From a bacterium (GTDB lineage: Bacteria; Babelota; Babeliae; Babelales; JAUWHS01): a stretch of DNA of 63,172 nucleotides. The stretch's first letter is position 1. The number at the start of each line of letters is the position of its first letter. Below, piece after piece: positions 35,901 through 41,533 of this stretch. Where the stretch lies: NCBI GenBank assembly GCA_043818275.1, contig JBDRFY010000062.1, positions 1 to 63,172 on the forward strand. The letters run 5' to 3'. A program made the translations under genes and the position numbers. The notes under the pieces are model-generated. The model had not been told where the DNA came from. It made no database searches and saw only the letters and a list, made by a program, of their open reading frames with translations.

Positions 35901-37071
35901 TTCTTTGAAGTTCAACGTAGACAAATGGTTTAAATAATTCTAAAGCCATTAACTTTGGCAACCCACATTGGCTAAGATGTAATTCTGGATCAACAACAAT
36001 TACGGATCTGCCAGAATAGTCTACACGTTTACCTAAAAGATTCTGCCTAAATCTTCCTTGTTTACCTCTTAGCATTTCACTTAATGATTTAAGTGGTCTT
36101 TTATTCGAACCCTTAACAGGCTGTCCTCTTCTACCGTTATCAATTAATGCGTCTACAGATTCCTGAAGCATACGTTTTTCATTTTTAACAATGACGTCTG
36201 GAGCCTGAAGTTCAATTAATCTTTTTAATCGGATATTTCTATTCAATACTCTTCGATATAAATCATTTAAATCAGAGCTAGCAAATCTTCCACCTTCTAG
36301 TGGAACTAATGGTCTTAAATCTGGTGGAAGAACTGGTAATACTTCCAAAATTACCCATTCTGGTCTTATGTTTGCTCTGAGCATACCCAATAAAACTTTA
36401 TAACGTTTGGCTAATTTAAGTTTTATTGCAACAGAAGTTGATTGCGCATATTCCTGCTCAATTTTTCTAACTTCAAAATTAAGATCTATCATTGAAAGAA
36501 GTATTCTTATAGCCTCTGCGCCCATTTCAACTTTAAAAACAGTATCATCCGGATGAGCATTAACATAATCTTCGTATTCTTGTGCGGATAATAAAGTTTT
36601 TTGTGAATAAGGAGAACTTCCCTGATGTATAACAATGTAACTATCAAAATAAATAACTCTTTCTAAATCCTTAACAGTCATCCCTAAAATCAAACTCAAG
36701 TAACTAGGAATTCCTTTAAGATACCAAATGTGACACACTGGCGAAACCAGATTAATGTGACCCATTCGCTCTCTTCTAACTTTAGACTGAATTACTTCCA
36801 CACCGCATTTTTCACAAGTTACACCCCTGTGCTTCATTCGTTTATATTTTCCGCAATTGCATTCCCAGTCTTTTACTGGACCAAAAATGCGCGCGCAAAA
36901 TAATCCATCTCTTTCTGGTTTTAACGTTCTGTAATTAATAGTTTCTATCTTTTTAACTTCACCATAAGAAAGAGATTTTATTTTTTCAGGAGAAGCAATA
37001 CTTAATTTAATAGCATTAAATTGAGTTGCGTTTATGTATTCTTTAAATCGTTCTAATATTCTGTTACTCAC
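32947..37071 (-). CDS. rpoC: DNA-directed RNA polymerase beta' subunit
   Basis: Carries the NADFDGD motif and an N-terminal zinc motif [20 protein letters not shown]. The start is proposed at the GTG at 37071, preceded by AAGGAG. The ORF track extends to a TTG at 37104. Confidence 0.95.
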
Positions 37072-40000
37072 CGACCTGCTCCTTATTCGCTTTAAATAAG
37101 TCAAATTGTAATGCCAAACTTTGAAGTTCTTTTACAAAAACATTAAACGATTCCGGAATTCCTGGTTCAGGAACTTCATCGCCCCTAACGATCGCTTCAT
37201 ATGTCTTTATACGCCCATTTACATCGTCTGACTTAATTGTTAACATTTCTTGCAAAGTATAAGCAGCACCATAAGCGTAAAGAGCCCACACTTCCATTTC
37301 ACCTAATCTTTGTCCTCCGAACTGAGCTTTACCACCTAACGGTTGTTGAGTAATCAAGGAGTACGGACCAACGGATCTGGCATGCAATTTGTCATCTGCA
37401 AGGTGATTAAGTTTCATCATATAAATATAACCAACTGTAACATCCTGATCAAAAGACTGCCCCGTTCTTCCATCAAACAATTGATATGCCCCATTTTCAG
37501 GTAAATTTGTTTGTTTTAAAAGCGGCTTTATCTCGTTTTCATAGCTAGCACCATCAAAAATAGGAGTGCTCATAGAAACACCCGTTTCAATTGTTTTTTG
37601 TGCTAAATTATTTAAAGCTTCTTTTCCATAAGATTTTTGTAATAAAGATATAATCTCATCTCCATAATATTCACTTAATTTACTCTTAATTTTTTCTTCA
37701 CTTAATTCATTTATATCCTTAGCTAAATCAATCCCCATTTGTCGGCCAGCCATACCTAATAATGTTTCTAAAATTTGTCCCAGATTCATACGACTTGGTA
37801 CACCCAGTGGATTAAGAACAATATCAACCGGTGTACCATCTTTCATATACGGCATATCTTCAACATTAACAATTCTTGAAATAACACCCTTATTACCATG
37901 ACGACCAGCAACTTTATCACCAACAGATAAATGTCGTTTAGCTGCAACATAAACCTTAATCATTTTAATAACACCGGATGGTAATTCATCACCTTTTCTT
38001 AATTTACCTATTTTATCTTCTTTAAGCGCAGTTAAAACATGAATCTGATTTTTCCAAATTTCTTTATATTCTTTCAATTTTAAATTTTTAGCATTTTTAA
38101 CAATTTTGATATCAAAAATTTTATCCAAATCAATTTTTTCTAATTTACTTTCAGACAATTTACCTTTAATAACAGAACCTGAATCTATTGTCTCACCATC
38201 AAGAATTTTAATTAATTTTTCTTTAAATCTTTGATTCAAAATTGAAACATGATAATTAAAATCTTCTTCAATTTTTTGAGCTTCTCTGGCAACAATATCT
38301 TTATATCTTTTATCTTTTCTGATACCACTTCTGGAAAAAACTTTAACATCCATCACTGTCGCTTCAACTCCAGGCGGCACCCGCAATGAAGTATCCCTAA
38401 CTTCTCTGGATTTTTCACCAAACATAGCACGAAGAAGTTTTTCTTCCGGAGAAACTTGGACATCTCCTTTTAAAGTAACTTTTCCAACTAAAATATCTCC
38501 AGGTTTGACTCTTGTTCCAACTTTTACAATTCCATCTTCATCAAGAGCAGCTAAATCTTTTTCACTAACATTTGGAATATCTTTTGTAATTTCTTCGGCA
38601 CCTAATTTAGTTTCACGAGCTTCAACAACAAATTCTTCAATATGAACCGAACTAAAAATATCTTCGCTAACTAAACGCTTACTGACAACAATGGCATCTT
38701 CAAAGTTGTATCCTTGCCAAGGCATAAACGCAACCAAAATATTATTACCCAAAGCAAGTTCACCATTTTGAATGGCTGCACCATCCGCAATAACATCACC
38801 TTTTTCAACTCTTTGTCCAACTTGTACAATAGGAGTATTGTGAATCCAGGTGTTGTGACTGGATCTGGCAAACTGTTTTAATTTATAAATATCAACCGGC
38901 TTGGAAACCCAACTGGTATCATCTTCATTTTTTCCATCAAGCCTGATAATAATTTTGTCTGCAGCAACATATTCAATCAAACCAGAATTTTTAGTAATAA
39001 TGCTTCCACCTTCAGCAGATCCAATATCTTTTTCCATGCCAGTTCCAATAATTGGTGCCTGACATTTAATTAAAGGAACAGCCTGACGTTGCATGTTAGA
39101 CCCCATAAGCGCACGGTTAGCGTCATCATGTTCCAAAAATGGTATCAAAGCTGTTGCTACAGAAACTAATTGTTTTGGAGAAGCGTCAACGTAAGAAACA
39201 TCTTTTGAATTATCTAAAATAATGTTTCCATCTTTTCTAACCAAAACTTTTTCTTCTTTAATTTTATTTTTAGAATCTACAGGAACAGATGCCTGAGCTA
39301 TAGCTTTATTTATTTCCTGAAATGCATCCAAATATAAAACATCATCCTGAATCACACCATCCTTAACAGGACGATATGGAGTCTCTATAAAACCTAAATC
39401 ATTAACTTTAGCATAAGTAGAAAGAGAAGAAATAAGACCAATGTTTTGACCCTCAGGTGTTTCAATCGGACAAATTCTTCCATAGTGTGAACTATGAACG
39501 TCCCGAACTTCAAATGTTGCTCTTTCTCTAGTTATACCACCAGGCCCCAAAGCAGATAATCTTCTTTTGTGAGCCATTTCAGCTAATGGATTTGTCTGAT
39601 CCATAAACTGTGATAATTGACCAGTTCCAAAAAATTCACGTAACACTGCTGCTAAAGGTTTTACATTTAAAAAATCATACGGCATTAAAGCGGTATAATT
39701 TTCCTGTAACCTGAATCGTTCTTTTATAATTCTTTCTATTCTTGCAAAACCAACATAAATTTGACTTTGCAACAATTCACCAACTAATCTGACGGAACGA
39801 TTTCCTAAATGATCAATATCGTCAAGCTCTCCCTCTCCACGCTCCTTTAATCCTATTAAATATTTAATGGTCGCAACAATATCTTCCCGGGTTAAATAAG
39901 TAATTGATTTATCAATATTTAATCCTAATTTTCTATTTGCACGAATACGCCCAACAATAGTCAAATCATAAAAGCGTGGATTAAAAAATAAATTATTAAT

Positions 40001-41386
40001 GTATTCCTTCATTGCATCAAGAGTTGGAACGTCACCTGGACGTAATTTACAATAAACCTCTTTTAACGCATCTTCATATGAAGAAACATTATCCTGAGCA
40101 AGCGTAAGAGCAATAGTAGGCTGAAAAACATACCCGGAAGATTGAATAAAACTCAATGTTCTATTCCCCAAAGAAACAATATGATCCAACAATTCTTCAG
40201 TTAGAACTTCTCCCTGAGAAATCAAAATTTCTCCTGTTTCATCATCAACAATATCTTCTGCTAAAATTCTATTAATTAAACTATTTGTTCTAACATTTAA
40301 AGAATTAATTCCCTTTTTCTTCAAAATAGAAATTAATTCTTTGTTAAATCTTCGACCAATACCAATTTCTTTTTCCAGTGTTTTTGTTGGAAGAGCACCG
40401 CTTTCTAATCTTTGACTAATTAAATTATCATCTACATGCCGGAAAAATTTTTCATTTTCAAGTTCAACCTTGTCAAATTTATAAAACAAAGAAAGAATAT
40501 TATCTCTTTGTATTCCAAGAGCCTGTAAAAAGGTTGTTGCCAGAATTTTTTTCTTTTTGTCGATTCTGACATTTAAAACTTCATTACTATCAAATTCAAA
40601 ATCCAGCCAGGAGCCCCTGTTTGGAATAATTCTGGCAATATGAGATGGTTGACCTCTAAAATCTTTAGTTTTTTTACTTAATGCAAATATTACACCAGGA
40701 GATCTATGCAATTGACTTACAACAACTCGATCTACACCATTTATAAGAAAAGTTCCCTGACTTCCCAAATAAAATTTTCCTGAATTATCCTGATATAAAT
40801 CAACCATAACAGGAAGATCCGCAAAAAATACTTCTTGTTCTTTAATATCTTTAATTAATTTTGTTGAAGCTTCTTGATCGGTATCCCAGGTAACTAACTG
40901 CATCTTCACTTTTAACGGCAAAGAATAAGTTTTCCCACTATATCTGCTTTCATCAACACCAGAATCAATTTTTATAATCACACGAGAAAAACATTTTTTA
41001 CATGTTATATAGGAAGCGGTTTTTTTACCACACTTCGGACAGACACAAGAATCTTGTAATGTTCCCACTCCACTTTTTTTACATGAAGAACAAGTCCATT
41101 TATAACGATTCTCCATTCCTTTTAACAAACCACAAACACACTCCCAGTTTCCAAGTTCATAACTTAAATATTCTAAAGATATGTGTTCATTATGTTCGAC
41201 AGGAAAAATATCTCTTAAAACTTTTTCCAGCCCAATATTTTTCCTTTCAGAAGGTAAAACATCCAATTGTGAAAAATTATTGAAAGATTTTGATTGAATC
41301 TCTATCAAATTTGGAAGAGATACAACCTGTTTTATTTTTCCGAAATTTTTTCGGATAGTTTCTCTTTTGCTTAGGAACTGAAACAT
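37064..41386 (-). CDS. rpoB: DNA-directed RNA polymerase beta subunit (with a Cys-rich N-terminal insertion)
   Basis: Conserved blocks VSQLHRSPGV, GDKVAGRHGNKGV and FGGQRLGEMEVWAL. The start is proposed at the ATG at 41386, preceded by GGGGAG. Confidence 0.95.
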   Translation of the reverse strand: MFQFLSKRETIRKNFGKIKQVVSLPNLIEIQSKSFNNFSQLDVLPSERKNIGLEKVLRDIFPVEHNEHISLEYLSYELGNWECVCGLLKGMENRYKWTCSSCKKSGVGTLQDSCVCPKCGKKTASYITCKKCFSRVIIKIDSGVDESRYSGKTYSLPLKVKMQLVTWDTDQEASTKLIKDIKEQEVFFADLPVMVDLYQDNSGKFYLGSQGTFLINGVDRVVVSQLHRSPGVIFALSKKTKDFRGQPSHIARIIPNRGSWLDFEFDSNEVLNVRIDKKKKILATTFLQALGIQRDNILSLFYKFDKVELENEKFFRHVDDNLISQRLESGALPTKTLEKEIGIGRRFNKELISILKKKGINSLNVRTNSLINRILAEDIVDDETGEILISQGEVLTEELLDHIVSLGNRTLSFIQSSGYVFQPTIALTLAQDNVSSYEDALKEVYCKLRPGDVPTLDAMKEYINNLFFNPRFYDLTIVGRIRANRKLGLNIDKSITYLTREDIVATIKYLIGLKERGEGELDDIDHLGNRSVRLVGELLQSQIYVGFARIERIIKERFRLQENYTALMPYDFLNVKPLAAVLREFFGTGQLSQFMDQTNPLAEMAHKRRLSALGPGGITRERATFEVRDVHSSHYGRICPIETPEGQNIGLISSLSTYAKVNDLGFIETPYRPVKDGVIQDDVLYLDAFQEINKAIAQASVPVDSKNKIKEEKVLVRKDGNIILDNSKDVSYVDASPKQLVSVATALIPFLEHDDANRALMGSNMQRQAVPLIKCQAPIIGTGMEKDIGSAEGGSIITKNSGLIEYVAADKIIIRLDGKNEDDTSWVSKPVDIYKLKQFARSSHNTWIHNTPIVQVGQRVEKGDVIADGAAIQNGELALGNNILVAFMPWQGYNFEDAIVVSKRLVSEDIFSSVHIEEFVVEARETKLGAEEITKDIPNVSEKDLAALDEDGIVKVGTRVKPGDILVGKVTLKGDVQVSPEEKLLRAMFGEKSREVRDTSLRVPPGVEATVMDVKVFSRSGIRKDKRYKDIVAREAQKIEEDFNYHVSILNQRFKEKLIKILDGETIDSGSVIKGKLSESKLEKIDLDKIFDIKIVKNAKNLKLKEYKEIWKNQIHVLTALKEDKIGKLRKGDELPSGVIKMIKVYVAAKRHLSVGDKVAGRHGNKGVISRIVNVEDMPYMKDGTPVDIVLNPLGVPSRMNLGQILETLLGMAGRQMGIDLAKDINELSEEKIKSKLSEYYGDEIISLLQKSYGKEALNNLAQKTIETGVSMSTPIFDGASYENEIKPLLKQTNLPENGAYQLFDGRTGQSFDQDVTVGYIYMMKLNHLADDKLHARSVGPYSLITQQPLGGKAQFGGQRLGEMEVWALYAYGAAYTLQEMLTIKSDDVNGRIKTYEAIVRGDEVPEPGIPESFNVFVKELQSLALQFDLFKANKEQVGE

Positions 41387-41533
41387 TAAATCGCTCCCCA
41401 ACCATAAACAGAAAAAATTTAACCAACCATCTACTTATAAAAAGATATTCGTAAAGCTAAGAAATGGATGCCGCCCTAAATAACAATTCAAGACGGAATC
41501 CATAAATTATTCAAAAGGATGTAGAACTTTACC

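Follow-up and report, generated by a model that had tools for sequence, protein, structure and literature searches.

RNA polymerase (RNAP) in the bacterial phylum Dependentiae (TM6; Babeliales) carries a cysteine-rich insert in the N-terminal region of its beta subunit, described here from the rpoB gene of contig JBDRFY010000062.1 (the window, meaning the whole contig stretch of 63,172 nt that was analysed). Relative to a 2024 survey of RNAP insertions (PMC11515920), this module is a lineage-specific insertion with what appears to be a new type of fold at a new site, and it is common to at least two phyla. The best explanation, to which we assign a probability of about 0.55 as a whole, is a small, independently folded, metal-binding surface domain that has an outer site clasping an inner ribbon, contacts the upstream fork, and originated from the zinc-binding domain (ZBD) of the beta' subunit. 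Coordinates are collected in Table 1, and residue numbers refer to the open reading frame (ORF) starting at TTG unless stated otherwise.

The window is AT-rich (GC content 0.31), and the ORF at 37064-41401 on the minus strand translates as RpoB. The insert lies between a strand ending in LEYLSYELG and a helix/strand region ending in VDESRYSGKTYSLPLKVK. The conserved blocks that flank it sit only 4 residues apart in E. coli beta. HMMER alignment to 46 distinct solved beta sequences splits at this point (query residue 80 pairs with E. coli 77, and 144 with E. coli 82), leaving approximately 59 extra residues. A preliminary description, made from the letters of the window alone, had estimated about 55 extra residues. 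It had placed the insert at 40952-41149; the insert is real, but the lower coordinate takes in nine flanking residues (IIKIDSGVD), and the true lower boundary is 40979. The insert is encoded on the minus strand; read in the plus direction, 40952-41149 yields nonsense riddled with stops. The same description had allowed that such a block might be common in well-studied bacterial beta subunits; none of the 46 matched solved beta sequences (HMMER) carries it. The insert fits the definition of a lineage-specific beta insertion (an extra domain in the conserved core, restricted to clades and absent from most bacteria). The TTG at 41401 adds five residues to the protein. All relatives start at the ATG at 41386, five codons downstream (MFQF.../MSQF...), and the TTG is probably not the start in use.

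Cysteine accounts for nine of the 57 insert residues and for only three of the 1389 residues elsewhere in the protein (Fisher p 2e-11). GC content is 0.36 in the insert and 0.33 in the rpoB gene. Both the count of nine and the pattern CxC...CxxC...CxCxxC...CxxC are as originally described, except that the ninth cysteine, C119, which lies beside the third knuckle, is not conserved. The eight conserved cysteines (C1 to C8 in order) make up four knuckles. The earlier proposal that there are enough cysteines for two Zn(Cys)4 pairs therefore holds, with the refinement that the two sites are most likely nested and not side by side.

Table 1. Features of rpoB, of the adjacent rpoC, and of related loci (window positions unless a locus is named).
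Feature	Coordinates	Strand	Remarks
rpoB (RNA polymerase beta)	37064..41386	minus	1440 aa counted from ATG; matches Pfam Rpb2 domains 1, 2, 3, 45, 6, 7
Cys-rich insert	40979..41149	minus	57 residues, NWECVCG...CFSRV; ORF residues 85-141 (80-136 from ATG); predicted two-zinc nested ribbon in beta1-lobe
Knuckle 1, CVC (C88, C90)	41132..41140	minus	Invariant; first half of proposed outer zinc site
Knuckle 2, CSSC (C104, C107)	41081..41092	minus	First half of proposed inner zinc site; lost with knuckle 3 in several Dependentiae lineages
Knuckle 3, CPKC (C121, C124)	41030..41041	minus	Second half of proposed inner zinc site
Knuckle 4, CKKC (C134, C137)	40991..41002	minus	Invariant, followed by invariant R140; second half of proposed outer zinc site
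Second insert, 13 residues (DLYQDNSGKFYLG)	40763..40801	minus	Just after beta1 strand 4, between ...DLPVMV and GTFLINGVDRV
Canonical beta' ZBD in adjacent rpoC	36805..36861	minus	Closest known sequence relative of the outer knuckles of the insert
Streptomyces/Saccharothrix fusion loci	L087-L100; e.g. L095:10001-13816, upstream gene L095:8477-9997	plus (both examples)	

Conservation of the insert was assessed in 201 sampled Dependentiae genomes with 21 family codes. Searched with a 130-residue stretch that takes in the insert, 41 of 41 relatives and 196 of the 201 genomes gave a match, and each match listed extends over the full query in 119-130 codons. Completeness is 82-92% for the five genomes that gave none, and three genomes with a split match are frameshifted assemblies that still contain the insert. 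Stops or frameshifts in the N-terminal part of rpoB were seen in near-complete assemblies of one to few contigs (G128:C4:197633-197981, G165:C1:598642-599020, and G177:C1:516170-516550); these are probably long-read indel errors and not pseudogenes. In an alignment of 55 sequences, W86, C88, C90, G95, R99, W102, Y131, C134, C137, and R140 are invariant; the first knuckle (55/55) is also invariant in Acidobacteriota, Nitrospina, and the Streptomyces fusion proteins discussed below. The insert is 40-84% identical among the relatives compared. Its dN/dS ratio is 0.05-0.24 between close pairs, two to four times looser than in the 70 codons upstream, and the insert is under purifying selection. Net charge is +8 in this genome and +7.2 on average in Dependentiae. 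At NCBI, one 1445-aa RpoB (P0045), with 63% identity across the insert region, goes under the name "Epsilonproteobacteria bacterium"; its sequence is that of a Dependentiae RpoB, and the source metagenome-assembled genome is probably mislabelled.

Mis-assembly, a translated repeat element, or an intein remnant could also place extra residues in a conserved gene, and the preliminary description had itself named an assembly artefact as a way in which it might fail. The insert is in frame throughout the 196 genomes and in hundreds of metagenome proteins, its GC content matches that of the gene, it is under purifying selection, and it has homologues in other phyla. An artefact or a recent mobile insertion is therefore refuted as a reading, and we attach almost no weight to it.

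Zinc ribbons consist of two pairs of CxxC or CxC knuckles placed at hairpin turns, and the insert contains two such pairs (CVC, CSSC, CPKC, and CKKC). AlphaFold2 (AF2) modelling of the 57-residue insert alone (alignment of 43 sequences) gave a mean predicted local distance difference test (pLDDT) score of 90, with short strands flanking the knuckles and one helical turn. The same secondary structure was obtained for the insert within a 600-residue N-terminal fragment (pLDDT 71-80 for the insert); quality of the fragment as a whole is moderate, with a pLDDT of 65.7 and a predicted template modelling (pTM) score of 0.52. The best Foldseek and VIA-align rows are all zinc ribbons (Rpb12/RpoP, MCM, TFIIE-alpha, eL43, Nob1, and rubredoxin-type), and all are weak. 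Pfam searches of the insert alone gave zinc-ribbon models below threshold (E 0.06-0.7). The zinc-ribbon-like fold proposed at the outset is supported by this confident small beta-rich model, whose only structural neighbours, by weak matches, are zinc ribbons.

Natural variants of the module give the best available indication of how its cysteines are paired. Reduced forms without C104/C107 and C121/C124, which arose by substitutions and a deletion of 6-7 residues, are universal among the sampled members of families f6 and f19, and families f5, f13, f17, and f20 have them in only some of their genera. The two inner knuckles go together in these forms, although one f13 group retains a lone C3. 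C1, C2, C7, and C8 (C88/C90 and C134/C137) are invariant in the reduced forms too, and approximately 37 residues still separate the pairs. If the family codes are natural groups, the distribution implies at least four to six independent losses of the inner knuckles. The outer four cysteines would constitute one site and the inner four the other, because orphaned half-sites would not stay conserved. It is likely that the insert binds two zinc ions in this nested arrangement, in which an outer Zn(Cys)4 site (C88 and C90 with C134 and C137) would clasp a dispensable inner zinc ribbon (C104 and C107 with C121 and C124). The repeated loss of the inner site is a natural experiment on which half of the module matters.

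The beta' ZBD, also called the zinc finger, contacts DNA and RNA, and its cysteines in E. coli are C70, C72, C85, and C88. The copy in the rpoC gene next to this rpoB belongs to a domain that is 90-100% identical across 40 relatives compared. A knuckle motif of the ZBD type (W/Y-E-C-x-C-G-K ... C-x-x-C-G-x-x-V) is detectable in the insert sequence as NWECVCG...CKKCFSRV. A four-cysteine insert from Nitrospina resembles the ZBD of the window (13 of 28 residues identical, or 46%, without gaps, E 4e-8). An Acidobacteriota insert profile aligned to the beta' ZBD over 30 columns (probability 95.4%, E 1.8e-8), and the Dependentiae profile over 15 columns, NWECVCGLLKGMENR being the part aligned (probability 47%, E 1.9e-4). 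The insert and the ZBD share the WECxCG first knuckle and the CxxC...V second knuckle, and both are small Cys4 modules on RNAP pincers. They differ in that the ZBD is at the N-terminus of beta' and the insert is in the beta1-lobe of beta, and the conservation of the ZBD among relatives exceeds that of the insert. The 12-residue hairpin between the knuckles of the ZBD is absent from the insert, which has 43 residues, including a second Cys4 set, at this place; only Nitrospina has the 12-residue form. Likewise, the insert (beta residues 80-136) is not at the ZBD location, which is the beta' N-terminus at the RNA exit channel, and the genuine ZBD is present separately in rpoC. The second ZBD knuckle corresponds to C3C4 by spacing and to C7C8 by relation to the downstream flank.

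Based on these comparisons, we see about an even chance that the insert derives from the beta' ZBD. Under this scheme, which is the simplest one, a ZBD-like ribbon would have been copied from rpoC into neighbouring rpoB, the Nitrospina four-cysteine form would be close to the original copy, and a second ribbon would have been added later to give the eight-cysteine form common to Acidobacteriota and Dependentiae. The resemblance suggests that a domain may have been copied between two adjacent subunit genes.

The beta1 domain is a four-stranded antiparallel sheet in which strand 3 is followed by edge strand 4; the latter bears an I-K-E motif and is the strand to which the RID of Mfd and of CarD pairs (PMC3001067). 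The N-terminal flank of the insert aligns to the crystallised beta1 constructs 3MLQ and 4XAX, and the I-K-E motif is represented here by LIKDIKEQEV. By sequence, the insert takes the place of the short link from strand 2 to strand 3 in the beta1-lobe (the "protrusion" of Rpb2). This lobe adjoins the upstream part of the transcription bubble (PMC4593161, PMC4593229) and is one wall of the tunnel for the template strand from -9 to -5 (PMC4593229). A second, 13-residue insert is present in eight of eight aligned Dependentiae sequences and absent from 78 of 78 other RpoB sequences compared; E. coli and other solved beta, Acidobacteriota, Nitrospina, and all other sampled rpoB lack it. Given the antiparallel arrangement of the beta1 strands, this second insert and the zinc module are expected to leave the sheet at the same end. 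The genome has one CarD_TRCF_RID match (contig C46:3812-3982, L086), in a 201-aa CarD/CdnL-like frame, so the module is not a simple substitute for CarD. The RID profile matched no Mfd-sized protein in this genome, which is 94% complete, and the transcription-repair coupling factor (Mfd) may be missing.

The module could give the enzyme an additional knob that touches nucleic acid close to the upstream fork, much as the beta' ZBD does on the other pincer. This idea follows from the location of the insert, the DNA and RNA contacts of the beta' ZBD, and the strong positive charge in Dependentiae. It is the weakest part of the explanation and, by analogy with the ZBD, we propose it tentatively as the less probable outcome.

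The search for relatives outside Dependentiae gave different results depending on the approach. A Dependentiae-only insert profile run against 1.84e9 representatives had 16 matches at E<=1e-3, comprising Dependentiae RpoB and fragments, a family of high-GC fusion proteins of about 1250 aa in Streptomyces, and two fn3-repeat false positives; no Acidobacteriota were found in this library search at that threshold. Protein homologue searches with the insert region, the Dependentiae alignment, or the Streptomyces protein region as query yielded either Dependentiae alone or Streptomyces alone. A lead came from the ESM Atlas, where Acidobacteriota RpoB fragments had a score of 0.86. Metagenome rpoB was then sampled with the universal patterns DDIDHLGN and EFFGTGQL, and 80 loci were aligned at the insert site. 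Two of these are Dependentiae loci with the eight-cysteine insert. A further 42 are high-GC loci with an eight-cysteine insert of 58-61 residues at exactly the same position (NWECKCG.L.GLHHLR..C.NCG...C..CGT.N.N....C..CGDPV). One locus has a 26-residue insert with four cysteines, and 35 have no insert. Exact-sequence look-up assigned eight-cysteine carriers to Bryobacteraceae, Edaphobacter/Terracidiphilus (Acidobacteriaceae), Pyrinomonadaceae, and Aminicenantes, all Acidobacteriota, and the four-cysteine carrier to Nitrospina sp. The preliminary view that a zinc module is unusual at this site in beta remains correct for the matched solved sequences, but the insert is not private to its lineage, and confinement to Dependentiae is ruled out by the Acidobacteriota homologue and the Nitrospina form. 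The RpoB of Nitrospina sp. (L147, contig Ga0233449_1000028) has a further insert of about 50 residues in the loop between strands 3 and 4 of beta1, beside the CarD/Mfd docking strand.

Comparison of the Dependentiae and Acidobacteriota insert profiles by hhalign was end to end (probability 96.9%, E 1.9e-10, 56 columns), and by this comparison the two inserts are homologous. They have the same site, the same four knuckles, and nearly equal lengths (58-61 and 57 aa). The Acidobacteriota insert differs in its first spacer (12 residues compared to 13 in Dependentiae), in its motifs (GLHHLR and CGDPV compared to GI.NRY.W and C.SRV), and in charge (mean +2 compared to +7), and Acidobacteriota do not have the second, 13-aa insert. 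In a tree of the RpoB N-terminus built without the insert columns, the Acidobacteriota carriers form one clade and Dependentiae are placed elsewhere on a long branch. An approximately unbiased (AU) test did not reject a single clade of all eight-cysteine rows (p 0.244). A single origin of the insert in the carrier phyla is thus neither demonstrated nor excluded. The PANNAM supergroup, which groups Dependentiae, Acidobacteria, Nitrospinae, and Aquificae (PMC11515920), fits the distribution seen here. This patchy spread across Dependentiae, Acidobacteriota, and Nitrospina has the character of a rare genomic change and could help to settle where the parasitic Dependentiae belong. Because the abundant soil phylum Acidobacteriota includes cultured strains, the module is open to experiment.

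Several observations weigh against the explanation we favour. No structural match is significant (Foldseek E >=0.2 with template modelling scores of ~0.46-0.57, and VIA Z of 2-3.3). Resemblance to the beta' ZBD extends over a short stretch and is due mainly to cysteine and glycine, so convergence is possible. The inner site is dispensable in several Dependentiae lineages. The weakly basic insert of Acidobacteriota weakens the argument from charge, and the positive charge in Dependentiae may simply reflect the lysine-rich proteins of an AT-rich genome. In addition, when the profile is aligned to the beta' ZBD, C1C2 is paired with C3C4 (spacing 12), a pairing that would fit a tandem topology of two independent zinc ribbons, C1C2 with C3C4 (the ZBD homologue) and C5C6 with C7C8. 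The four ZBD cysteines fall on C1-C4 of the Acidobacteriota insert by hhalign, with the same 12-residue spacer, and C5 to C8 alone resemble a short CxxCG...CxxCG ribbon. This arrangement is difficult to reconcile with the joint disappearance of C3C4 and C5C6 in at least four to six Dependentiae lineages in which C1C2 and C7C8, ~37 residues apart, never vary, and the second knuckle of the Nitrospina form corresponds to C7C8 relative to the downstream flank. We consider tandem ribbons improbable, and nested sites are preferred.

Function could also be explained without any contact to nucleic acid. The zinc sites may be an inert structural staple, only making an enlarged beta1-lobe loop rigid or buttressing the 13-residue insert, with no nucleic-acid or partner contact. 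The inner site has been lost repeatedly while the module stays, charge is not conserved between phyla (+7 and +2), and many of the RNAP insertions specific to particular lineages lack a known function (bioRxiv 10.1101/2021.06.06.447298). On the other hand, R99, W102, Y131, and R140, which are surface residues other than cysteine, do not vary across the whole phylum, at least two phyla have kept the module for a long time, and all eight cysteines persist in a dead-polymerase family, which suggests more than filler; a staple is unlikely, though it deserves more credit than the other alternatives. The module might instead be a docking platform that extends the binding surface of the beta1-lobe for a protein partner such as CarD/CdnL, a sigma-factor region, or a lineage-specific factor. 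CarD and the Mfd RID are known to dock on the beta1 sheet (PMC3001067, PMC4593161), the genome encodes the 201-aa CarD-like RID protein, and other beta insertions are factor platforms, as in beta-In5 with PcrA (bioRxiv 10.1101/2021.06.06.447298). The Streptomyces fusions that bear the module are non-catalytic and hence candidates for binding roles. However, sequence topology indicates that the insert leaves the sheet two strands from the RID-binding edge, no partner gene was identified near rpoB (no systematic search was made), and CarD is also present in many phyla without the insert. Docking appears a little less probable than a staple, and a metal-binding surface domain with contacts at the upstream fork is still our preferred explanation.

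The fusion proteins that carry the insert outside RpoB are "hypothetical proteins" from about 15 Streptomyces species and one Saccharothrix (sp. ST-888), for example WP_405827451.1 and MEU9658726.1. They consist of a beta N-terminal block with the Dependentiae-type insert, a degenerate beta flap and barrel, and beta' residues 1 to approximately 490, and they end just past the beta' double-psi barrel. The eight-cysteine insert is in the same beta N-terminal context as in Dependentiae RpoB, and all eight cysteines are invariant. BLASTP of a fusion protein against the RpoB of the window gave 32% identity over 150 aa (E 2e-24). By hhalign, the fusion insert aligned to the Dependentiae profile over 56 columns (E 3.1e-15) and to the Acidobacteriota profile over only 14 columns. 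Presence of the 13-aa second Dependentiae insert in the fusions was considered, and MAFFT alignment did not bear it out. In four sequences inspected by eye, neither the catalytic beta' motif NADFDGD nor the beta motif GRHGNKG is retained; other residues stand in their place. Judged by their sequences, the fusions are not polymerases and are predicted to be catalytically dead. In 13 of 14 loci, a gene encoding an XRE-HTH and STAND/NACHT NTPase is directly upstream, its stop overlapping the start of the fusion gene; beyond this pair, the 14 loci have no conserved neighbour. PADLOC gave weak Avs1b/STAND_TPR matches on the NTPase and none on the fusion. As a hypothesis only, fusion and NTPase might form a two-gene sensor cassette with a polymerase decoy.

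A bolder scenario, which we regard as quite unlikely, is that a zinc finger was transplanted early from rpoC to rpoB in a lineage including Nitrospinota, Acidobacteriota, and Dependentiae. The later two-zinc nested module would then be a second finger on the opposite pincer, gripping upstream fork or spacer DNA or guiding the template strand. If this were true, the second finger would alter promoter opening without a separate factor, and Dependentiae, whose position is hard to settle, would be linked to Acidobacteriota by a rare indel that serves as a phylogenetic marker. The scenario would further suggest that the dead beta-beta' "decoy" proteins found beside STAND NTPases in Streptomyces came from a Dependentiae-like source.

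RNAP insertions and zinc ribbons already described offer comparisons for the module. The searchable literature yielded no account of a zinc module in the beta subunit of bacteria, and a prior mention is possible in Lane & Darst 2010 or Iyer & Aravind 2012. The Lane and Darst catalogue of beta insertions reportedly includes beta-In4/SI1, beta-In9/SI2, and others. The AF2 model comes closest, though weakly, to the ribbons of Rpb12/RpoP, TFIIE-alpha, and the MCM N-terminal domain, with no significant match to them in sequence or structure. These differ from the insert in having a single Cys4 set and in being separate subunits or domains, none of which is inserted in the protrusion of the second-largest subunit. 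The 2024 survey lists five lineage-specific beta insertion sites, in uD2, uD3, uD5, and uD4, all of BEAN type; it has no catalogued site in the N-terminal part of beta-uD1 (E. coli 1-152), and the words "zinc", "cysteine", and "ribbon" do not occur in its text (PMC11515920). The insert site, equivalent to E. coli 77-82, is inside beta-uD1 and outside these five sites. No BEAN-containing chain was among the Foldseek/VIA matches of the insert model, and no direct fold comparison with BEAN was made. Like the catalogued beta insertions, the module is a clade-restricted domain in a surface loop of the conserved core that tracks phylogeny; unlike the catalogued BEAN/BBM2 folds of about 100 residues, it is a cysteine-rich mini-domain (PMC11515920). 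The survey's insertions comprise few folds, none of them metal-binding, at five sites, and the cysteine-rich module is a new kind of insertion relative to them.

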